IMG/VR virus record: IMGVR_UViG_3300032307_000117
Location: 1 to 64,000 of that record
Reading direction: 5' to 3' (one strand)
Length of the DNA stretch: 64,000 nt
DNA from: a virus
Under the pieces are notes generated by a model, which was given only the letters and a program-made list of their open reading frames with translations, ran no database searches and had not been told where the DNA came from. Position 1 is the first letter of the stretch. Each line of letters starts with the position of its first letter. The translations under genes and the position numbers were made by a program. Positions 26,050 to 44,560 of this stretch are shown piece by piece.

Positions 26050-26687
26050 TATACCTCTTCCAGGCTAAGAGATATGTTCCAAAAGTCATAGTTGCTGCCA
26101 CCACGCTTAACAACCCCGTAAGAAAAGTCTGAAAAGAATACTTCGACAACTTCATTGTATTTCTGCAGGTTTGTGTATGAACCAGCATCTCTACCAAAAT
26201 TTGTGTGCTTGTCGTATGCAAGGTATACCCAGAAAGATCCACTGTGTTTTTCGTACCAGTCTAGAATCTCTACTCCACCAGCACCACCATCTGAAGTAAA
26301 TTCCTGAGTGTTGTTCTTGTAGTATTGAGATCTTCCCTCTTCATCAAATCCAGGATATGATGTGTACGATCTTGATGGCAACATATCCCAAGAAGCAGAA
26401 ATCTCTAGCTTGTCAGCAATATGATAGGACCTCATCCTACCATTTACCATTCGTTTCCTGTTTTCAATTCTGTTTACGTTAAAGCCAAGCTCTGCCCTAT
26501 TGTCGTCTGAAAGGATTAAGAATTGATCTAGATCTGATGCAGATGCACCCTCTGTTGTTTCTTGGTTAACCTCAAGACCGTTTGGCACATAGAAACCATC
26601 AATAATCGTTCCTGGATTGTCTGCAAATAGCAAGGCCTGTGGACGCTGATATCTTTTTCTACCAGACATGTATTCAAGGGTGGACAT
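26049..26687 (-). CDS. distal tail (Dit-like) protein
   Basis: Immediately follows the TMP; ends WNISLSLEEV. Confidence 0.65.
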   Translation of the reverse strand: MSTLEYMSGRKRYQRPQALLFADNPGTIIDGFYVPNGLEVNQETTEGASASDLDQFLILSDDNRAELGFNVNRIENRKRMVNGRMRSYHIADKLEISASWDMLPSRSYTSYPGFDEEGRSQYYKNNTQEFTSDGGAGGVEILDWYEKHSGSFWVYLAYDKHTNFGRDAGSYTNLQKYNEVVEVFFSDFSYGVVKRGGSNYDFWNISLSLEEV

Positions 26688-29600
26688 TAGAACCTATTAC
26701 CCCTGATTCTCTGAGAGTCAATTCTCTTAATCTGTGTCATTACATTCCTTGCAATTTGGTCTGCGTTAGCATCTGTTTGTACGTTTACGTTGATACTATA
26801 ATTATACACTGATTCGCCAGAATATGTTCCGTTATTTATTGCCTTCATATTATCTAGGCCAAAGTTCTCAACAGCATACTTTCTCATTACAAATTCGCCA
26901 GGTGTTAGCATTGCTGGGACAATGTCGGTTCCGCCCTTGGCAAACTTTACGTTGGCTAGGCCTCCACCCGCAAACATCTTGGCAACATAGCCACCCTGGT
27001 TAAACTTAGCTGCATTAACCTTGCCAACATTAGAAATCTTATTCCACTTCTTGCCATCCCACTTCCAGGTTGCATTTGGACCAACCCAAACCTCACCCTT
27101 CTTTTTCCCATCGTGATCTGGGCCTGGCCTTGTACCCTTAAATTCGGCATTTGGCTGGCCTGCAACTGGAGCCTGAGCCCCAGTGCCCTGACTTACCAGA
27201 GGAACGTCAACCTGCGTTTCTCCTGGAGTAGCATTTTTCCATGCAGTCTTTAAGCTTTCTACCATTGCGATTGCATTAGAAATTGATTCAGTATAGCGAG
27301 TACTTCCAATTCTAGAGTTCTCTATTTCGGATTCGATTTGTTGCCAAGCTAGTCTAGTCTTATCCAAAACAGTTACGGAATCTATAAGGGCTTGTTTCTC
27401 GATGTCTGCTAATCTAATTCTTTCTTGTGCTGGCTCCAGCCTCTTTTCCTCTATAGCAAAGATTTCATCTTGCAACTTTTTAATCTCATCTTCTAGCTGC
27501 TTTCTAGTTTTGCCATTAGAAGATACTAGGGTCGCTAGCTCTTTCTCCTTTGAAAGCTCTAGGGCCTTTTGCTGAGCGTCTATGCTTGTTTGAGCCTGAG
27601 TAGCACGAAGATCTTGGGCTGCCTTTGCAGCTGCAGCAATATCTCCTCTAGATAGTGCATCTGCTACGGTAAGCTGAGCTTTTTGCTGAGCTACTAGGTC
27701 TGAGTTTATTTCTTTTATCTCACTCAGGGCCTTGCTACGGTCAGCGTACTTCTTGTTAACCACATCTTCCTGGTCTGCAATTTCCTTTATTCCAGCCTGA
27801 AGGTCATCAATTGTAAACGATATCTTATCGATATCATTCTGTGCAGCATCAATAATCTTTAGATCTGGCTGAGTCTTTACTTCAAAGTCTAGCTCTATCT
27901 TTCTTTCTTTTACTGAGATTGCATTCATTGCAGCATTAAAGCCTTCGTCAAACAGACCCTGTAAGAACTCTGGATTAAGGATTTGCTTTACTCTAGCCTG
28001 AAGAAGCTTTTGATTTTTACCGCTCAGGAATAGCTCTGTGAGTGCTGAGTCGCTAAGAATTGCCTGTCTTTCTGCAAAGCTGTAAGAGCTCTTTTCAAGA
28101 GCGTTAGCAGCCTTAGCCAAGTTGTTTGCATCTTGTGCGGCTATCTGAACTGAGGCTACATTTTGGAATTCTTTTGTTGCAGCAGTTGCAGCCTTAGTAT
28201 CTGCAATTAGCTTAGTAAGTGCAGATTCACTTATCTGCTTTCCAGCAAGCGCAGCTGCTACTCCAGCATTTTCAACAGCGTTGTAGGCCTCTTCTAGAGA
28301 TAATCCTGCAGCTACTAGCCTGTTTACTGCAACAGTCTGGTCTTTTGTCTCTTGAATGGTTCTAGCCTGATTTAGCCCAAATTCACCAACTGCAATTCTA
28401 GCATAAGCGGCCTCTCTTCTCTTACCAGCCTTAGTAAGAATTGCTGTTCCATCTTTTCCTATTTGAACAAATTTCTTTCTAGCATCTTTGCCCATGCCCA
28501 TAAGCTCATCAGCAAATGCTTCTGAAATGCCAGCTTTTGCAAGTTTTTGTCCAAGTCCGTCGAACACGTTTAGCTTAGTTCCATCGATTACACGCTTTAG
28601 CTCTTTTAGTCCACCGTTTGCATTAATTGATGCATTAGTTAGGTTCTTTAGCTTTTTAAGTGTGTCATCAATCCAGGTTGTCTTTTTAGCTCCTGCACCA
28701 GTAGTTGTTGTCTCTCCCTCAGTGTTGGTTCCAGTACCACCATCAGTTTCAGATGGTTGACCAAGGAATGCAGCCATCCGCTGTTCTGCAGTAATTCTAG
28801 ACATTGCAGTTTCGCTTCTGATGTTTTTACCTGGGCCAACCGTGTAGTACCAAGCGTCAACGGCTGTCTGGTTGTATTTTCCAATTGCAAAGTCAACAAT
28901 TAACTCTGCATTCATTGTTTTCTTTCCACCAGACAAGACATCCCAATTTGCAAGAACTGATTCCAGGATTCCCTTTGATGGACCAGCTGGCATCGTAGAT
29001 ATGAAGTTTGTCAAGACTGTCTGAGTTACTTCCTTTGGAAGACCCTTTGTGTCCTTTACTAGATTTCCGATAACTTCAGTGTTTTCGGCAGTTATTTCAA
29101 CGCCTATACCATATTCACTCTGCATGCTGTTTAGTTCAGCAAGTGCCTTTAGGTTATAGTCTATGTCTGCTTTATCTTTAGTAACAAGGCTAAAGACGGC
29201 CTCGTACTCTTTACCTTCAACCCCTGCGGCATTTAGTAATTGAATTACCTGGTTTGAATCTGCAGTTCCAACTGCTTTTACCATTAGATTAAACTTAGAG
29301 CTGATATTGCCGTTAGATTCTTTATTAGCATTAATGAGGTTTGAAATAGTGACTGGATCAAATTCGCCGCTTGCCAAACCTATCTGAAGCGTTGTCTTAA
29401 AGTCTCCCTGCTCCAACCCAGCCAGCGAACTCTTCGCTAGATCAGCAGCTGCCTTCATGGCTCCAGTTGCATTTGCAAATCTTGAATCAATCGCCAAGTT
29501 TATTGAGTCTGTGAAGCCAGATCCCATTATTCTTGCTTGCTCTACTAGAGAATCAAATACCGCTGCATTTGCTGCTTTTTGTTTTGCCAGCCCAGCATTT

Positions 29601-32600
29601 CTTTCAGCAATCTTATCGCTAATCTGCTTCTCTATGGCAAGTCTTTCTTTTCTAGTTGTTGCAGCTTCTTTTTCTGCCTCAAGCTGGGATATCTGACCGT
29701 CGTACTGTCTTTCTAGAGAATCTAGCAATCCCTGGTTTTGTGCAATTTGTTCTGCACCAAGCTGTACGGCTACGCCACGAGCCTTGTTGTTTTCTTCCTG
29801 ATCTCCGAGTGCCTCTACTCCTAGGGTTGCACCAGCTGCAGCAACACCTCCAGAAATAAGTCCGATACCAAGAAGACCACCAATACCAGTTGCAGTTAGG
29901 GCTGCCCCAACGGCTGTCATAATTCCAGCACCGATTAGGTTGCCTACAGAACCACCAGATACCTCGGCATTCTTTTTCATTAATTCTATTGAGTTGTCAA
30001 AAGCCTTGTTTTGCTGTGCAAGAGAATCTTTTTGGATTGCCAAAGAAATTTCTATTGGATCTCCATTAAGAAGGTTCTCTCCGTTTGGACCAAAAAGCTG
30101 TGTTAACTTTCCACCGATGTTTGCGCTTATAGAATAGTCTCCGAGTTTTTCTGAAAGCCCAAACGCAATACTTCTAGCCTGTTGGTCAGTTATTGCACCC
30201 TGCATTATTGCATAAGAAAGTTGGCTAGCAATGCTTGAGGCAACTTCTGCACTGCTCATTCCAGATGTTGTCATTGCCTCTGCATCGGAAAGCAGCTTCT
30301 TTCCAGCCTGAGATTCTAAGAAGTTTTGTCCGAACTCTCTCTTCTTTGCACCTTGACCACTTAGCTGTTTTTCTCTTTGTCTTTCGGCAATTTGACTTGC
30401 TGTTACTTTTCCAGTAATCTCAGACATTTCGTTAAGCTTTTCGCTTGTCATTGCCATAGACTTACCAGCCTCTAGCCCAGCCTTAGTGGCATCTGATAGC
30501 TTAGTGGTTAGATAAATAATTCCTGCAGCTAAAGCCCCAACTGCAACTAGTGCCAAACCTATTTTATTTGCAATCATAGGAAGCATCATTAATGGTAGCG
30601 AGGCCATTCCAGCTAAGTCTGACGCTGGGCCTCCAGTCATGCTGTACATCATAGCAGCGGTACCAGCAAGCATGCCAACTCCGCCTACACGACCAGCCAT
30701 AGATCTCTTTCCTGCTGTGGCTGGTTCTGTTGGATCAAGATCGGCTGGGGCCGTTCCAGTTCCTGGAGCTCTAACTCCAGTAGCTGCTGCAATTGCTCTT
30801 CTAGCTGCATCGCCAAAGCCCTGCTTTAGATTGCCAGCAAGACCTCTTGATGACTTTTGGGTAAGCTCAACCTGAACTGGCTCAGCTGTATTTGGTAGCG
30901 TACCTCCAGGTGCCGTCTTTCCTTTTACGTATCCAGGTACGTTATCGGCAATCATAGAATTAATTAGTGGTGCATACTTCTTTGACATTTGAGCTGGTAT
31001 TACAGCTTCTCCTGGAGAAAGCATTGCTGGAACGATGTCCCCAGCACCCTTTGGGCCTGGAACAGACACTACGCCCTTATTAAAGGCAAAGCCTCTTCTT
31101 CTAAAGAATGCCTTAAAGAAATTAGTATTTGGAGACTTAGCATATTCAAGGTTTTCTTTAGATCCTGGGAACTGCTTAGCCAGTGGCCTCATTGGTATCC
31201 CAATTGGCTTTCTTTCCAGCCCCTTGCTCTTAAAGCCAGGAAGGTCTTTGTTTCTTATTTCGGCTGGTGAAGTTTGTGATCTTTTAAAGATGTACTGTAA
31301 ATCTTTAGTTCCTGCTGGCAAACGCTTTTTGGCTAAGTCATAAATTCTTTCCATACTTATGGCTTTGACACCTTTACTTTCTAAGTATCTGGCTGATGCT
31401 TCAGAATCTACTACCTTTGTTCCTTGCGGAAGATCGTCTAAAATTTTAGTGATGGTGTCATCAAACATCTTCGTCTGAGGAGCTAAAGCAGCTGGGTCTC
31501 CTCCGCCAAAAATAATAGAGCGATCCCATTTAGAAATGCCAGATCTTCTGAATTCTCTAAGTAATGCATCCTTGTCTGCTCCCTTTGCATACTTAATTGA
31601 CCCATCTGAATTTTGCCCTTCTGCCATTTGAGCATTTAGTCTTACTAGCTTTCCATCTGGCCCTATTTCTTTGTTTTCTATGTCAAAACCAAAGCCACTC
31701 TTTAGGTCTAACATTGTAGCATTTGGATCGGCAACTGTTTGCAAAGCTCTTTTTTGACTAGGAGAAAGCTTAAGTATTCCCTGATCAGATAGCCTTAATG
31801 CTTCTGCAGCAGATATTTTTGTTCCAGATCCGATATGAGCAAATTCTTTTTTAATTGAAAAAGCTTGTATGCCCATAGCTTCTCTGAAAGATTTCTTTAA
31901 GACTCCTGATCCTAGCTTAGTTCCACTCTGGTTTGCAGTTAAAATTAATGAGTCTATGGCTCTAAGAGTTTTTTGAGCACCTAGCTGTGTTTTTGATTCA
32001 TTTGCAGCATCGCTCATTATAGATGCAGCATCTTGGCTACCGATATTTGCCTGTGCTAATTTTGCAAGAATTTGTCTACCAATGTCAGCAGATCCTGCAG
32101 CATCAAACATGGCTAAGCTTGTTGGGACAGTTCTATAGCTTCTGCCACCACTATAGGTGTATCCTAGAAGCTCAGAATATTTCTTTTGCTGGGAGCCAGT
32201 TAGGTTAAGATCACGGAATACCGCTCTATCTTGGTCAGTAAGGGCTAGTGCTGCACCTATCGTTCCACTCATCAATCCCTGGAAAAGTCCAGACTGAGAA
32301 CCGCCTGGTACAGAGGCGATGCCCTTGCTATATCCTGGAACCCCAAGCTTTTTAAATAGCCTTGCTATAAAGCCAGGCCCTGTAACACGGATTGAGCCAA
32401 GACCTGCAGATTTTAATTCTGACTTGATCTGCTTTGCCATTGCTGGATTGCTAGCAATTACCTTTTCAATTTCGGCAAATCCAAATCCACCAGGAGTATA
32501 TGTTTCTACGTATGGAGATCTTGGATTAGTGGTGTACTGGTTCTTAGTTCCTGGAGTTAGGTTGCTGCCAAAGGGCATTCCCAGTCTTTCAAAAGAACTT

Positions 32601-35344
32601 AGTTGTCCAGCTGATGCGCCTCGCATTGGAGCAATCTGGAATGTGCCTCGGCCACCTGAGCTTTTTGCTCTATAGTAATCCATCAGGATATCACCAGGGT
32701 ATGCAGAAGACCTTCTTGCAACAGAACCCTTAGTTATAAGATCTATATCTCCATACATACCCAAAGATTTATCTGTTGGCTTTCTGGTAAGGGCATTAAA
32801 GTTTCTTCCCTTAATTCCAAACAGTGAATTAACTATTGACTGAAGAACAGAAGTTTTTGCATATCCGTATGTAGGCCTAGCAGATCCTGAAGTAGTCTTG
32901 GGATCTAGACCAAAAACATCGGACTCCATTTTTGCACGAAGCTTTTGCTGCTTTGGGTTTTGGCGACCATACTTTGTGAGGTAATCTGCCCCGCTTTGTG
33001 TGTCAAATGCGCTTTGATATCTTGCATTCTTTCCTTGTGACTGTAGAGCACTTATAAAGTTTCCTGAACCCATCCTTACAGCAACTCTGGATTTACCTAG
33101 CATCGATGCAAATGGATTTCGTCCAAAAGCAAAGCCAGGAACGTTGTCGGCAATAAGAGATGAAATAATTCCACTGTACTTTTGGGATTGTCTTGCAGGA
33201 ATAACTGCTTCTCCTGGTGAAAGCATGGCTGGCACAACATCTCCAGCCCCCTTAGGACCTGGAACAGAAAGAATTCCACGTGCATATCCTGGTATGCCAT
33301 CAATGGTTCCCTGTGGTGACTGAGCTCTTCTGCCTCCAGGAATTCTAGTTATTGGCGGTGCAATAGAAATTCTTTGATTTGCGGCAGCCGCATTCATTGC
33401 TAGCTGTGCTCTAGTTGCTGCCTGATAAACTCCAATTAGCTGAGTTAGGGCTGCTGCCTCAGAAGTGAAGGTTTGCTTAAGCATTGCATGAGATTGATTC
33501 AAAGATGCTGCTACGGCTGCTGCTTCCAGCTGCTCTTGGGTCATGTATTGGGTTGCAGATCCTAGCTCTGTAGAAGACCCAGACAATCTTTGATAGAATA
33601 ACCTTAAGGCATTAAATCCCTTTGCCAGGTTTGCAACACCGTTGGCAACTAGACCTATAGTCATAAGAGCCGCTGGCGCAATTAATCCCAATGTTGTAAT
33701 AAGTCCAGTTACAAAGGCTTTTCCGCCTTCGCTCATATTGTTAAACTGTTTTAGTAGCGATGTTCCAAAATCAATAATTGGTGTAACAAGCTTAATAAAC
33801 TGTTCTCCAAATGGGGCAAGAGATGCCTGAAGATCTTCCATTGCTTTCTTAAACTTGTAAGCTGGAGAATCCTCTAGTCTCTTTAATTCTCGCTCTGAAA
33901 GTATCGCAAGCTCTTCTGCGGTTGCCTTAGATAGCTGAAGAACACGGCTTGCCTGATTTCCTTGTCCAATTACGTTTTGAAATAGTGTTGAAATACGTGA
34001 AAATTGGAACTTACCGAATAGCTGCTCAATTGCTCTAGCACGGTTTAGAGGATCTAGCGTATCCAATGCATTAGCAAAATCAATGACTAGACCTTTTACG
34101 TCGCCCTTATTTGACTCTACAATATTTTTTACATTTATTCCAAATTGAGCCAGCATTTCTGCAGCTTTGCCAGTTGGATTAATTAAAGAGGCAAGACCAG
34201 ACTTAAGTGCGTTGGCACCTTCAGAGGCATTAATTCCACCTTCTTTCATGGCGGTTAGGAAAAATGCTAAGTCCTCGACGTCTCCACCCAGCTGTTGAAC
34301 TACTGGACCAGCTTTTGGAATGGCAATAGTTAAGTCTTCAATACTTACAACAGTTTGGTTTTCAACAGCGTTAAGAAAGTCTGTTTTTCTTGCAAGATCT
34401 TCGGTTGCAACACCAAAAGCACTAGTTAAAGATATTGTAGTTTTTAGTGCTTCTTGCTGTTCTACCCCACCCAAAACGGCAAGTCTTGTTGCCTCTGCAA
34501 CCTGAGCTGTTAATCCTGCGCCCATTTGACCCATTGCTGCAGCATCGGCTGCTAGCTCCATAGTCTTTTCTACGGCAACACCATATTTTGTAAACTCATT
34601 TGCAAGGTCTCTAATACCAGCCAAAGCCTTTTCTGTTTCAGCAGTGGTTGTAAACATTTCACCATAAACACGTCTAAAACGAATTGCCTGCTCTTCGAGC
34701 TTCATAAATGTCTTAGAGGCAACAGTCCCAAGCATTGTAAGAGGAATAGTAAAACCAACCATAAGCTGGCGACCAGCCCACTGAGTATTTTTACCCCAGT
34801 TTAAAAGATTTGTAGATCCTTGCTTTACAAGCTGATTGAATAGTTGCTGCTTCTGAGCAGTCATGGCTGTCTGGGTAGCCAAGTTATTCATATCTAGAAC
34901 AAGTGGTCTAACGTTAATTGCCTGAAGGGCACCGCTAGCATCACGACCCATCTTAATGTATTGGGTCTGAAGAGTCTTTACTCTTTCTCTAGATACCTTT
35001 TCAATTGTGTCAAACTCGGATCTGAATAGTCGTCCGAATGTTTTTGTAGATGCCCCAGCGTACCTAAAGTACTCTCCCATAGAGAGCTTGTTCTTTTCCA
35101 GGGCATTGGTAAAAGATTCTGTAGTGCTTTTTATTGTAGAAAGATTGGCAGAAAACTTGCCAGTAGCATTAATAGAGTCAACAAGACTCTTCTGCATGTT
35201 TCTGGACATAGCAGCATTAGCTGCATTTCCAGATGCTTGCATTTGTGTGTGAAAGGCCGAAATCTGACGCTGCAGATTTTTAATACTTGCCAGAGCTGAC
35301 GAAGTATCAATATCTATTCTAATATTGGCTTCAGAATCAGCCAT
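26687..35344 (-). CDS. tape measure protein with embedded globular cargo domains
   Basis: 2885 aa after the tail chaperones; TP901-like core (IPKAGPVVQQLGG...GANALKSGL), hydrophobic segments, coiled coils, repeated DxVPAMLxPGE motifs. Confidence 0.92.
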   Translation of the reverse strand: MADSEANIRIDIDTSSALASIKNLQRQISAFHTQMQASGNAANAAMSRNMQKSLVDSINATGKFSANLSTIKSTTESFTNALEKNKLSMGEYFRYAGASTKTFGRLFRSEFDTIEKVSRERVKTLQTQYIKMGRDASGALQAINVRPLVLDMNNLATQTAMTAQKQQLFNQLVKQGSTNLLNWGKNTQWAGRQLMVGFTIPLTMLGTVASKTFMKLEEQAIRFRRVYGEMFTTTAETEKALAGIRDLANEFTKYGVAVEKTMELAADAAAMGQMGAGLTAQVAEATRLAVLGGVEQQEALKTTISLTSAFGVATEDLARKTDFLNAVENQTVVSIEDLTIAIPKAGPVVQQLGGDVEDLAFFLTAMKEGGINASEGANALKSGLASLINPTGKAAEMLAQFGINVKNIVESNKGDVKGLVIDFANALDTLDPLNRARAIEQLFGKFQFSRISTLFQNVIGQGNQASRVLQLSKATAEELAILSERELKRLEDSPAYKFKKAMEDLQASLAPFGEQFIKLVTPIIDFGTSLLKQFNNMSEGGKAFVTGLITTLGLIAPAALMTIGLVANGVANLAKGFNALRLFYQRLSGSSTELGSATQYMTQEQLEAAAVAASLNQSHAMLKQTFTSEAAALTQLIGVYQAATRAQLAMNAAAANQRISIAPPITRIPGGRRAQSPQGTIDGIPGYARGILSVPGPKGAGDVVPAMLSPGEAVIPARQSQKYSGIISSLIADNVPGFAFGRNPFASMLGKSRVAVRMGSGNFISALQSQGKNARYQSAFDTQSGADYLTKYGRQNPKQQKLRAKMESDVFGLDPKTTSGSARPTYGYAKTSVLQSIVNSLFGIKGRNFNALTRKPTDKSLGMYGDIDLITKGSVARRSSAYPGDILMDYYRAKSSGGRGTFQIAPMRGASAGQLSSFERLGMPFGSNLTPGTKNQYTTNPRSPYVETYTPGGFGFAEIEKVIASNPAMAKQIKSELKSAGLGSIRVTGPGFIARLFKKLGVPGYSKGIASVPGGSQSGLFQGLMSGTIGAALALTDQDRAVFRDLNLTGSQQKKYSELLGYTYSGGRSYRTVPTSLAMFDAAGSADIGRQILAKLAQANIGSQDAASIMSDAANESKTQLGAQKTLRAIDSLILTANQSGTKLGSGVLKKSFREAMGIQAFSIKKEFAHIGSGTKISAAEALRLSDQGILKLSPSQKRALQTVADPNATMLDLKSGFGFDIENKEIGPDGKLVRLNAQMAEGQNSDGSIKYAKGADKDALLREFRRSGISKWDRSIIFGGGDPAALAPQTKMFDDTITKILDDLPQGTKVVDSEASARYLESKGVKAISMERIYDLAKKRLPAGTKDLQYIFKRSQTSPAEIRNKDLPGFKSKGLERKPIGIPMRPLAKQFPGSKENLEYAKSPNTNFFKAFFRRRGFAFNKGVVSVPGPKGAGDIVPAMLSPGEAVIPAQMSKKYAPLINSMIADNVPGYVKGKTAPGGTLPNTAEPVQVELTQKSSRGLAGNLKQGFGDAARRAIAAATGVRAPGTGTAPADLDPTEPATAGKRSMAGRVGGVGMLAGTAAMMYSMTGGPASDLAGMASLPLMMLPMIANKIGLALVAVGALAAGIIYLTTKLSDATKAGLEAGKSMAMTSEKLNEMSEITGKVTASQIAERQREKQLSGQGAKKREFGQNFLESQAGKKLLSDAEAMTTSGMSSAEVASSIASQLSYAIMQGAITDQQARSIAFGLSEKLGDYSISANIGGKLTQLFGPNGENLLNGDPIEISLAIQKDSLAQQNKAFDNSIELMKKNAEVSGGSVGNLIGAGIMTAVGAALTATGIGGLLGIGLISGGVAAAGATLGVEALGDQEENNKARGVAVQLGAEQIAQNQGLLDSLERQYDGQISQLEAEKEAATTRKERLAIEKQISDKIAERNAGLAKQKAANAAVFDSLVEQARIMGSGFTDSINLAIDSRFANATGAMKAAADLAKSSLAGLEQGDFKTTLQIGLASGEFDPVTISNLINANKESNGNISSKFNLMVKAVGTADSNQVIQLLNAAGVEGKEYEAVFSLVTKDKADIDYNLKALAELNSMQSEYGIGVEITAENTEVIGNLVKDTKGLPKEVTQTVLTNFISTMPAGPSKGILESVLANWDVLSGGKKTMNAELIVDFAIGKYNQTAVDAWYYTVGPGKNIRSETAMSRITAEQRMAAFLGQPSETDGGTGTNTEGETTTTGAGAKKTTWIDDTLKKLKNLTNASINANGGLKELKRVIDGTKLNVFDGLGQKLAKAGISEAFADELMGMGKDARKKFVQIGKDGTAILTKAGKRREAAYARIAVGEFGLNQARTIQETKDQTVAVNRLVAAGLSLEEAYNAVENAGVAAALAGKQISESALTKLIADTKAATAATKEFQNVASVQIAAQDANNLAKAANALEKSSYSFAERQAILSDSALTELFLSGKNQKLLQARVKQILNPEFLQGLFDEGFNAAMNAISVKERKIELDFEVKTQPDLKIIDAAQNDIDKISFTIDDLQAGIKEIADQEDVVNKKYADRSKALSEIKEINSDLVAQQKAQLTVADALSRGDIAAAAKAAQDLRATQAQTSIDAQQKALELSKEKELATLVSSNGKTRKQLEDEIKKLQDEIFAIEEKRLEPAQERIRLADIEKQALIDSVTVLDKTRLAWQQIESEIENSRIGSTRYTESISNAIAMVESLKTAWKNATPGETQVDVPLVSQGTGAQAPVAGQPNAEFKGTRPGPDHDGKKKGEVWVGPNATWKWDGKKWNKISNVGKVNAAKFNQGGYVAKMFAGGGLANVKFAKGGTDIVPAMLTPGEFVMRKYAVENFGLDNMKAINNGTYSGESVYNYSINVNVQTDANADQIARNVMTQIKRIDSQRIRGNRF
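30925..33290 (-). repeat. two ~55-codon repeat units within the TMP (about 33135-33290 and 30925-31093); partial copies near 32310-32345 and 26870-26945
   Basis: GILSVPGPKGAGDVVPAMLSPGEAVIPARQSQKYSGIISSLIADNVPGFAFG vs GVVSVPGPKGAGDIVPAMLSPGEAVIPAQMSKKYAPLINSMIADNVPGYVKG. Confidence 0.9.
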
Positions 35345-35367: not shown

Positions 35368-35688
35368 TTACTTAAGATTGTTTAGCAAAGCTGCATCTGT
35401 AAGATTAATTCCAGATGCCTCTTCTACAATCTTATACACAGTTGGAAGGTCTAGAAGCTCTTCCAAAGCTGCTGCATCAGCTGCCAACTCTGGCTTGTAC
35501 TGCTGCATAGCAATCTGTACACATTCCATCAGTAGGCTCATCGACTTCTCGTTGTCCTCTGCCACCTTTGCAATGCCCTCAAACTTGGACATGAATGGAC
35601 GCAGTAGAGAAATCTTTAGTGGGCGAACTGCCACCTTTGTTCCATCAATTAGTGTAATTGTCTTTTCTTCATTTACTGTTGTAGCCAT
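35368..35688 (-). CDS. tail assembly chaperone, short (G-like)
   Basis: Between major tail and TMP; paralogous to the N-half of 35715..36410. Confidence 0.75.
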   Translation of the reverse strand: MATTVNEEKTITLIDGTKVAVRPLKISLLRPFMSKFEGIAKVAEDNEKSMSLLMECVQIAMQQYKPELAADAAALEELLDLPTVYKIVEEASGINLTDAALLNNLK

Positions 35689-35713: not shown

Positions 35714-35722
35714 ATTATACCA
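35714..35722 (-). promoter_or_regulatory. extended -10 promoter for the short chaperone and TMP
   Basis: TGGTATAAT then GAGAGG SD. Confidence 0.6.
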
Positions 35723-36410
35723 CAGTTGCACTCTTTTTGTCTATCTTTTCATAGCTTAGCCCCATGCCAATGCCGAAGCCAGCCTTCTGGGCTCCTACCC
35801 CTTGCAGGGCGACAACGTCATTTGGATCCTTTGTGGTTCCACCACTAAAGACCTTTGCCTTCATCTGTTCCCATGCGTTAGAGCTCTTCTTGTTGTCTTT
35901 ATCTATGTCAACTCCCTGAATGGCAGCCAAAAACTTTTTTTCTTGATAGTCTAGCTCTCTTTTAGATTCTAGGGTGGCCATTAATTCTGGCATAGATAGC
36001 GATGACTCTAGTTGTTCATAGTCTTTCCAGATACCCAGCAAGAATGCCTCTGCCTCTAGCTTTGCCAGGTCAAGGGTTTCCCATGTAGAACCACTCTCTA
36101 CGGCCTGGTCTTTAACAGTTTCTTCAGAATCTGGCTTTACCTTGATTCCAGCGGCTACCTCTATGATCTTATAAATAGTGTGAATATCGGCATTGTCTTC
36201 TAGGTCAAACCTGTCTGGGGTATATTGCTTCATAGCTATTTTTGCACATTCCGTCAAAAATAAAACAGCTTGACTGTCATTACTTGCATTTTTTACAAAC
36301 TCAAACAGCTCCATAAATTCTCTAAGATATTTAATCTTTAGTGGAGTTAGGCTAACTTCCGTGCCGTCCATAAGAGTTATGCTCTCAACGTCATATATTT
36401 TAGTAGCCAT
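35715..36410 (-). CDS. tail assembly chaperone, long (GT-like, in frame)
   Basis: G-like N-half plus a C-half (WKDYEQLESSLSMPEL) resembling a T moiety. Confidence 0.7.
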   Translation of the reverse strand: MATKIYDVESITLMDGTEVSLTPLKIKYLREFMELFEFVKNASNDSQAVLFLTECAKIAMKQYTPDRFDLEDNADIHTIYKIIEVAAGIKVKPDSEETVKDQAVESGSTWETLDLAKLEAEAFLLGIWKDYEQLESSLSMPELMATLESKRELDYQEKKFLAAIQGVDIDKDNKKSSNAWEQMKAKVFSGGTTKDPNDVVALQGVGAQKAGFGIGMGLSYEKIDKKSATVV

Positions 36411-42967: not shown

Positions 42968-44560
42968 CTACTCAGCTGCTCTACCCTCACCCTGTGGATT
43001 TCTACCACTTAGGGTTGTTGGGCTATCAGAAGCGTTGTTAGACCTTTCGGTGTCCCTTGCTCTATTTCCTGAGAGATCCGCCCTAGTATCCGCAGCCTGC
43101 CGTGGTGACATTACAAATGGCATGTCTCCGTCTGGCCTCTGTGGCAAACCAAGAACCTGTCTGGCTTCGTTAGGAACCATAACTTGGGTCTTTACGTATC
43201 TTTCAAGAATCTGGGACTGAGCAATTTCATCAGTCAGGGTTAGCTCGTTAAACTTAAGCTCTAGGATGTCAGTCTTTTCACGAATAATCTTATTAAGAAC
43301 CTTCTCTAGATTCCTCTGAGCTGGTCTTGCCACCTGCTCTTTAAATGTACGATCCTGGGCAAGGGCAGATGCGATGTTTGAAGAATCCCCTCCACCAATC
43401 TTAGATAGCGGAACCTGGTGTGCAATAAGAATGTCGTCTCTGTTTTGCTTGCGGTATTCCTTGAAGGAAGCTTCCTGAACACCGTTCTCAATTGGCTCCA
43501 TTTTAAACTCAACCTTATTAGTCTCTGTATCTCCTGGTAGCGGAACGTAGAGGGTTCTGTGGGACTGACCCTTTAGATTTGTCTGAAGGAATCTAAATAA
43601 CTTATCTTCTGCCTCGTCAGATAGTCTTGCACCCTTTAGGGTTACGACGTATCTAGGAACAGCCTTATTTCCAAAGTAATCAATGTTGTATTGTGATGCT
43701 AGCTGGTCTCCATGCAAAGATCCAATTGCAGCCATAATGTCTGGAATACCATAGAAAGTATTTAGTGGAGAATACTGCTTAAAGTGAATGATCTCGTTTG
43801 GTCTTGGATCATCAGTCATTGGGTTTACGTTAGTTGCCCCGAAATTTCTAAAGTAGACAACCCTGTGACCAATCATCTGGACATAGCCATCACGAAGTCT
43901 ACGGACTCTCATGGTTGTTGCTGGAATGTGCCCCAGGTATCCAATCTGGCCATTTACGGTTCTACCAATTTCTAGGTATCCATTTCCAGTTGCCTGAACA
44001 TCTGTGTAAACCTTTGTCATAACGTTTGTAAAGGACTCGTCATCATTAAGGGTTTCTATCCAGTCCCGCATCTCAATTTTTGCTCGTTCAATTCTGTTTC
44101 TTGCCCTAGCCCTCTGCTCTTCATTAGCAGACTCAAGCTTCATCATAGTCCTATCAGAAACGTGGAAGTCATAACCAAGTCCAACGATATTTTCCACCTT
44201 TGCATCAATGGCTGCGTGGTTGGCAAAAGATGTGTCATAGTAGTTTGCAAGCTCATAAAGATTCCATGGCGGGGTAATGACATCAAACAAGCCATATCCG
44301 TTGTGGTAAACAACTCCAGGGTTAATCTCCTTAGATCTTGCACCGTCTCTACCAGCATTTACAGCAAGGGCATTCCCAAGGTATTGGTCGGTTGCATCAA
44401 CCTTTGCAATCCTGTTGGTTTTTCTTTTAAAGTTATTGCTAATTCCAGAGAACTTCTTTAGCTCTTCCCAAGGCTTGTTAAAGGGGTCTTGCCTTTTAAA
44501 GGTGTCATCTTCTGGTAATAGGTCATCTGTTTTTAGCAGAATTCTCTGGATTTCATCCAT
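42968..44560 (-). CDS. portal protein
   Basis: GNGYLEI, EIIHFK, YGIP, AHQVP, PNEAR..LGL. Confidence 0.92.
   Translation of the reverse strand: MDEIQRILLKTDDLLPEDDTFKRQDPFNKPWEELKKFSGISNNFKRKTNRIAKVDATDQYLGNALAVNAGRDGARSKEINPGVVYHNGYGLFDVITPPWNLYELANYYDTSFANHAAIDAKVENIVGLGYDFHVSDRTMMKLESANEEQRARARNRIERAKIEMRDWIETLNDDESFTNVMTKVYTDVQATGNGYLEIGRTVNGQIGYLGHIPATTMRVRRLRDGYVQMIGHRVVYFRNFGATNVNPMTDDPRPNEIIHFKQYSPLNTFYGIPDIMAAIGSLHGDQLASQYNIDYFGNKAVPRYVVTLKGARLSDEAEDKLFRFLQTNLKGQSHRTLYVPLPGDTETNKVEFKMEPIENGVQEASFKEYRKQNRDDILIAHQVPLSKIGGGDSSNIASALAQDRTFKEQVARPAQRNLEKVLNKIIREKTDILELKFNELTLTDEIAQSQILERYVKTQVMVPNEARQVLGLPQRPDGDMPFVMSPRQAADTRADLSGNRARDTERSNNASDSPTTLSGRNPQGEGRAAE

Follow-up and report, generated by a model that had tools for sequence, protein, structure and literature searches.

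The stretch of DNA analyzed here (the window) comprises positions 1 to 64,000 of the IMG/VR virus record IMGVR_UViG_3300032307_000117, a 75.9-kb record judged to be ~70% complete. Its minus strand contains a single uninterrupted open reading frame (ORF) of 2885 residues (26687..35344, from the ORF list and translation), which is a phage tail tape measure protein (TMP). The protein matches PF10145 over residues 246–444 (84.7 bits, Pfam), TIGR01760 over residues 207–552 (91.9 bits, NCBIfam) and nine PHROG tape-measure families over residues 8–666 (phrog_10030, E 1.6e-94). A VPAMLTPGEFV motif at its C-terminus has a match in the Douge mycobacteriophage TMP (8zdo_S) as well, and there are three hydrophobic segments (residues 543–571, 1583–1617, and 1803–1843). 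Embedded in this structural protein at residues ~745–995 (32360..33112, minus strand) is a predicted domain with a SopF/DUF3626-like ADP-ribosyltransferase (ART) fold, delineated with AlphaFold2, Foldseek, VIA-align and hhalign. The plus strand of 32350–33110 has no sensible reading and many stops.

A sequence-only reading of the same DNA had proposed a DUF3626-like domain at 32350–33110, based on seven short motifs and a family pattern. The bounds agree with ours, and all seven motifs were found in the order given within the 2885-residue minus-strand ORF, over TMP residues 775–962 (window 32459–33022). Read from the minus-strand translation they are RYQSAFDT (residues 775–782), RAKMESDVFG (803–812), RPTYGY (823–828), YGDIDL (864–869), RSSAYPGD (878–885), YVETYTPGG (945–953), and EIEKV (958–962). 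That family pattern was also correct when compared with the consensus of an alignment of seven reference DUF3626 proteins, which reads KSQFETGTS...RxxxExxxFG...RPxYG...YGS...RxTFxxxDS...YxEAQxHG.

The relevance of this family to ADP-ribosylation comes from SopF, an effector of the Salmonella type III secretion system. Residues 178–338 of SopF constitute DUF3626 (PMC6682159), and the protein is an ADP-ribosyltransferase with an I-Y-E triad whose target is Gln124 of ATP6V0C; it has been solved with ARF1 and nicotinamide adenine dinucleotide (NAD) (7DN8, 7DN9; PMC10333799). Activity is largely blocked by E325A, at an N-ribose contact, and by Y224A and Y240A, at nicotinamide contacts, and the mutagenesis primers place E325 in YIEAHIHG, Y224 in RPIYAAL, and Y240 in SAYGKSF (PMC11937434). 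Because SopF carries DUF3626 and is an ADP-ribosyltransferase, the link between DUF3626 and ARTs, offered tentatively by the sequence-only reading, is established biology, with experimentally shown activity and NAD complexes behind it.

The TMP domain is predicted to have the SopF-type ART fold. An AlphaFold2 model built on 32 sequences has a predicted local distance difference test score (pLDDT) of 83 and a predicted template modeling score (pTM) of 0.77. Comparison of an AlphaFold model with ART folds by Foldseek had been proposed as a check on the domain, and this comparison ranked SopF first (7dn8_A/7dn9_A, E 3.8e-6), followed by DarT and other ADP-ribosyltransferases. VIA-align superposed the model on SopF with a Z score of 11.7 over 190 residues (root-mean-square deviation 3.7 Å, 17% identity) and on DarT with Z up to 10.7. 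A scan of 48,161 chains independent of Foldseek again placed SopF at the top (Z 11.3), with ART-superfamily proteins alone in the top positions. The structural neighbors below SopF were DarT (Z 8.7–10.7), Tpt1 (7.6), OspC3/CopC (~6), and CteC, then classical ART toxins and PARPs; no competing non-ART fold appeared in the structural searches of the model.

At the sequence level the relationship to DUF3626 is transitive. Residues 720–1020 of the TMP, queried directly, had no match in Pfam, PHROGs, NCBIfam, or PDB sequences. A search of the whole 75.9-kb record with PF12294 (DUF3626; gathering cut-off 27 bits) returned nothing, which is uninformative since 14 control genomes were likewise silent. 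However, two TMP-embedded relatives from viral contigs, L005 and L006, pass that cut-off at 28.3 and 27.4 bits, and two further TMP-embedded relatives have sub-threshold matches. We used three alignments, of whole TMPs (A1), of nine TMP domains (A2), and of the seven reference DUF3626 proteins (A3), the last drawn from Hymenobacter, two Streptomyces, a Vibrio plasmid, a Nodularia phage, Actinomycetia phage DSL-LC01, and mycobacteriophage L5 (gp2), with the three phage members verified on PF12294 at 27.6–38.8 bits. PF12294 was the only Pfam family matched by the nine TMP domains at E values up to 10, and hhalign joined A2 to A3 with a probability of 99.1% (E 1.2e-18) over 151 columns, each motif block in register. 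The A3 profile in turn matches SopF at E 3e-14. Against the PDB, the A1 profile found the Douge TMP plus coiled-coil noise only and the domain-only A2 profile found no match, so that SopF was reached via the A3 profile alone. In the ESM Atlas, based on a protein language model, 22 of the 30 nearest clusters are DUF3626 (best scores 0.92, 173 shared features). Judged from these profile comparisons, the resemblance to DUF3626 is far beyond chance. The earlier description of the domain as DUF3626-like is supported by the alignment of A2 with A3, the transitive hidden Markov model evidence, and the predicted fold, although the direct profile search that it called for was null and the window's own copy scores nothing on the Pfam model. 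By a strict Pfam criterion the domain is not a member of DUF3626; by profile, fold, and active site it is of the same lineage.

The NAD-contacting residues of SopF are preserved in the alignments. Residues were mapped from SopF to the TMP through two alignments (A2 to A3 by hhalign, and A3 to SopF). In this mapping, Y826 in RPTYGY (codon 32867..32869, minus strand) and Y864 in MYGDIDL (32753..32755, minus strand) correspond to the nicotinamide-contacting Y224 and Y240, respectively, and E947 in YVETYTPGG (32504..32506, minus strand) corresponds to the catalytic E325. The NAD-bound structure 7dn9 reads YIDAHIHG where 7dn8 reads YIEAHIHG, which marks this position as the SopF catalytic Glu. Conservation was counted over 48 cluster representatives of the TMP-embedded family, each close to full length and aligned locally, with overall identity down to ~30%. 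E947 is invariant (48/48), and Y826 and Y864 are each Tyr in 47 of the 48, with Phe in the exception in both cases. Y776, R803, E807, P824, G865, and D885 are also kept in every representative, and R757 and R823 in all except one (47/48). Across 18 relatives, the ART domain is 53.5% identical compared with 35–39% for the coiled body of the TMP. The near-invariance of the Glu and both Tyr residues, seen in sequence, argues for activity.

The domain belongs to a family found almost entirely in giant TMPs. When 1.84 billion cluster representatives were scanned exhaustively with HMMER, 51 relatives were recovered, almost all of them proteins of 2500–3400 residues. That ~50 cluster representatives should nearly all be giant TMPs indicates a recurrent design in uncultured phages, as opposed to a one-off. 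The position of the ART domain varies among relatives (~700–1000, but also ~1050–1380, 1830–2070, 2100–2340, 2320–2540, and 2510–2770), identifying it as a module that moves within these proteins. A search of viral contigs for related loci with A1 gave 10 loci, and with the single domain as query gave nothing; no hit came from tblastn of the domain in 50,697 phage records or from megablast with the complete TMP gene. There was no related locus and no prophage copy in 185,579 bacterial and archaeal species genomes, and hence no host assignment by that route. When A2 was used for a word-indexed search of 5.8 billion proteins, restricted to domain-like lengths, a single fragment came back and no free-standing relative. 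Two shorter proteins carry the domain: P0038 (480 residues), which ends in a full TMP C-terminal module plus tail and may represent either a mini-TMP or a gene call cut short, and P0044 (527 residues), which is without the module.

SopF-type domains also occur in cultured phages outside TMPs. L5 gene 2 (L013:1305-2084), a DSL-LC01 protein (L012:1754-3154), and Nodularia phage gp019 (L011:1244-3121) score 27.6, 38.8, and 36.2 bits on PF12294, respectively, and all three pass the cut-off. Viral proteins with the same fold in BFVD include an annotated minor capsid protein, a Nodularia DUF3626 protein, an L5 gp2-like protein, large multi-domain phage proteins, and giant-virus proteins; none of the BFVD set is a TMP. 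In DSL-LC01 the DUF3626 gene follows the portal gene, and that portal is unrelated to the one encoded in the window.

Within the window's TMP, the ART domain sits in a cassette flanked by internal copies of the module found at the C-terminus of the protein. The true C-terminal copy, with VPAMLTPGEFV, occupies residues 2804–2839 (26828..26935, minus strand) and matches Douge TMP motifs. Flanking module 1 is a 59-residue internal copy of this motif type (residues 683–741; 33122..33298, minus strand; VPAMLSPGEAVIPA), and flanking module 2 is a second full internal copy (residues 1418–1475; 30920..31093, minus strand). A short junction (residues 1001–1014; 32303..32344, minus strand; GVPGYSKGIASVPG) forms a partial module between the ART domain and a second insert (residues 1020–1420; 31085..32287, minus strand), and the cassette as a whole is bracketed by the hydrophobic segments at residues 543–571 and 1583–1617. 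The modules are the best-conserved part of the TMP across 18 relatives (module 1 ~80% and module 2 ~74% identity). In most relatives the matched ART stretch starts ~15 residues past a module, and in nine listed relatives another module lies within 10 residues after its end. The second insert has no Pfam family and no informative Atlas neighbor and is alignable in only 2 of the 18 relatives, and thus looks like variable cargo.

The Douge TMP (8zdo_S) has two internal matches to the module motif, at residues ~960–1014 and 1411–1461. In IMGVR_UViG_3300031857_002181, a related TMP (L010:2070-3182) has an insert of ~360 residues between two modules with no Pfam family, and this insert is unrelated to either the ART domain or the second insert of the window. 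A further related TMP (L008:3-4706) has a weak, sub-threshold match to GNAT acetyltransferases (15.8 bits, E 0.018) at residues 1040–1093, downstream of its ART domain; one of the BFVD fold neighbors is annotated as containing a NAT_SF domain.

On balance we favor the view that TMP residues ~745–995 are a divergent, TMP-embedded ADP-ribosyltransferase of the SopF/DUF3626 lineage that is probably catalytically active. In Douge, lambda, and HK97 the tail is filled and sealed by the TMP trimer, which is expelled upon baseplate opening and is believed to make a channel through the envelope (PMC13033339). Given this expulsion, we interpret the domain as an enzyme made in advance that exits the particle before the DNA, so that the cell probably receives a ready-made host-modifying enzyme from the phage before the genome arrives. 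Each virion would store three copies of the domain in the tail lumen, one for every chain of the TMP trimer. On opening of the tail tip the TMP would be expelled ahead of the DNA, and its hydrophobic segments at residues 543–571 and 1583–1617 would insert into the envelope. The domain would then enter the cytoplasm, either still attached or cleaved near the repeated flanking modules, and there, with phage gene expression yet to begin, draw on host NAD+ for ADP-ribosylation of a host target, the likely purpose being host takeover or counter-defense. We infer the role of injected effector, which the sequence-only reading had also put forward, from what is known of TMPs. Activity, the kind of molecule targeted (protein or nucleic acid), detachment from the TMP, and cytoplasmic entry are likewise inferences. 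Taken as a whole, the sequence-only interpretation is supported.

Several points weigh against this interpretation. The window's own domain has no PF12294 match even at E 10, whether searched alone or within the whole TMP. The His of EAQxHG, which all seven reference DUF3626 proteins share and which SopF has as the second His of YIEAHIHG, is P951 here (codon 32492..32494, minus strand; placed by the same alignment chain), and across the TMP clade is P, L, M, F, A, or K, with His in none of the 48 representatives. Its loss may mean altered chemistry or loss of activity. The "I" of the SopF I-Y-E triad has no mapped equivalent, as the first beta-strand is outside the hhalign match; our guess is that R757, in the first strand, takes the first position. 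Three folded 28-kDa domains fit poorly in a tail lumen of ~4 nm, and storage would need an unfolded or serial arrangement. To our knowledge, no experiment shows a globular TMP insert reaching the cytoplasm, the site of NAD+. Nor does the 75.9-kb record, ~70% complete, reveal a target, a partner, or a hydrolase that would reverse the modification; neither a macrodomain nor an ADP-ribosylglycohydrolase was found there.

The missing His bears on two alternatives. It had been noted from the sequence alone that ETYTPG in place of EAQxHG might leave the domain altered or inactive; the deviation is real, but since His is found in 0 of 48 representatives it is a trait of the whole clade and not the decay of this copy, and inactivity is disfavored by the near-invariance of Y826, Y864, and E947. 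A catalytically dead ART fold kept for structural reasons, whether to plug the lumen or act as a spacer in it, to serve as a checkpoint in assembly, or to bind a component of the host envelope or membrane, would be in keeping with the lost His and the lack of a direct Pfam match, and TMP inserts could merely add length or anchor points; ART-fold pseudo-enzymes are known in other contexts. However, the SopF-type NAD-contacting residues (47–48 of 48), together with R803, E807, and D885 (48/48) and R823 (47/48), are retained among clusters that are ~30% identical, which is more than a mere spacer needs. The domain is also better conserved than the TMP coiled body, and because the same slot can hold unrelated inserts, there is no fixed structural role tied to the ART fold. 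We consider a dead fold distinctly improbable. A less remote, though still unlikely, explanation is an active NAD-using enzyme with a chemistry or target class unlike that of SopF, such as DarT-like ADP-ribosylation of DNA or RNA, NAD+ glycohydrolysis, or Tpt1-like 2'-phosphotransfer. DarT comes within ~1 Z unit of SopF (10.7 vs. 11.7) and Tpt1 reaches 7.6, the clade-wide replacement of the substrate-side His fits a changed substrate, and a nucleic-acid or NAD+ target requires no host-specific protein partner. By sequence, though, the domain groups with DUF3626 and SopF (PF12294 as the sole Pfam match at E up to 10, hhalign 99.1%), and for a DarT-like enzyme in particular there is neither a match to the DarT family among the nine TMP domains nor, in the record, a macrodomain or ADP-ribosyl hydrolase partner as in DarTG.

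The remaining alternatives concern where the enzyme works and how it is carried. It might act in the producing cell, for example by modifying host or tail proteins while virions assemble and the domain is not yet enclosed in the tail. The producer cytoplasm in which the TMP is synthesized and folds does contain NAD+, and there is no evidence of cytoplasmic entry after ejection. An enzyme for assembly only would, however, need no fusion to a virion protein, and the related fold in the BFVD "minor capsid protein", along with the portal-adjacent DUF3626 gene of DSL-LC01, fits delivery with the particle, so we hold action in the producer to be very improbable. The delivery proposal can also be extended: the TMP may be a modular effector-delivery platform, a form of polyprotein in which copies of the C-terminal module mark slots for enzymes that are expelled first and freed in the host cytoplasm. 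The SopF-type ART would then be one cargo beside the unrelated inserts of sister phages, and would modify a membrane-proximal or defense target within seconds, before phage gene expression. This extension is possible, but we regard it as doubtful. More speculatively, the target could be the ATP synthase c-ring, the bacterial homologue of the SopF target ATP6V0C.

Of the known systems, SopF is closest to the putative TMP-embedded transferase. The two share the predicted fold, the sequence superfamily, and the correspondence of Y224, Y240, and E325 to Y826, Y864, and E947, and SopF too is delivered ready-made into its target cell by an injection device, as we propose for the TMP domain. In contrast, residues 1–112 of SopF have no counterpart in the TMP domain, which scores below the Pfam cut-off and has Pro at the EAQxHG His. 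SopF is also free-standing, is activated by eukaryotic ARF GTPases, and modifies ATP6V0C at Gln124 (PMC10333799), whereas the TMP domain lies inside a structural protein of a phage and would have a bacterial target. The DUF3626 proteins of phages (L5 gp2, Nodularia gp019, and DSL-LC01) are likewise phage-encoded and align motif by motif with the TMP domains, but are separate genes of 259–625 residues that keep the EAQxHG His; we found no published function for any of the three. DarT (7YK3, 7OMV, 8BAQ) is the second-best structural neighbor (Z 8.7–10.7 over 160–177 residues) and differs in having no sequence-family match to the domain, in the absence of a DarG-like macrodomain from the record, and in being the toxin of a toxin–antitoxin pair and not a virion component.

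Delivery of ADP-ribosyltransferases by virions has precedents in T4 Alt (PMC7824862) and the MuF-VIP2 ART fusions of actinobacteriophages (PMC7302621). These ARTs likewise travel in the particle and enter along with the DNA, but they are packaged in the head and belong to the R-S-E (VIP2/Alt) type; the TMP domain is of SopF type and rides on the tail tape measure protein. Catalytic modules acting at entry are known within TMPs themselves, in the form of embedded peptidoglycan hydrolase motifs in mycobacteriophage TM4 and T5 pb2. An ART needs cytoplasmic NAD+, whereas these hydrolases require no cofactor and work outside the cytoplasm, on the cell wall. Head-borne phage ARTs (T4 Alt, MuF fusions) and TMP-borne cell-wall hydrolases are known already, and a full-text literature search found no published ADP-ribosyltransferase or cytoplasm-acting NAD-dependent enzyme inside a TMP. 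If the domain is active and delivered, the first protein out of the tail would double as a carrier of effectors with swappable cargo, and a second functional context, besides that of Salmonella SopF, would be found for DUF3626, a large and mostly uncharacterized family of bacteria and viruses. The question of whether TMP segments reach the cytoplasm could then also be addressed in a tractable system.

The genes surrounding the TMP are consistent with a long, noncontractile tail. The gene order includes portal, protease, major head protein, and an Ig-domain protein, a 1545-residue minor tail protein is encoded downstream of the TMP, and no match to a sheath family was found among the neighboring genes scanned. 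The portal protein (42968–44560, minus strand) is 46–48% identical to portals of Streptomyces phages of ~128–133 kb, and the G+C content of the window is 41–42%; our guess for the host is an actinobacterium with low G+C. Just upstream of the TMP are two minus-strand genes (35368–35688 and 35715–36410) whose first ~100 residues match phrog_10504, the longer of the two (35715–36410) additionally matching phrog_10474. With two paralogous genes in the usual chaperone position, this pair looks like a tail-chaperone pair, the function of the PHROG being listed as unknown.

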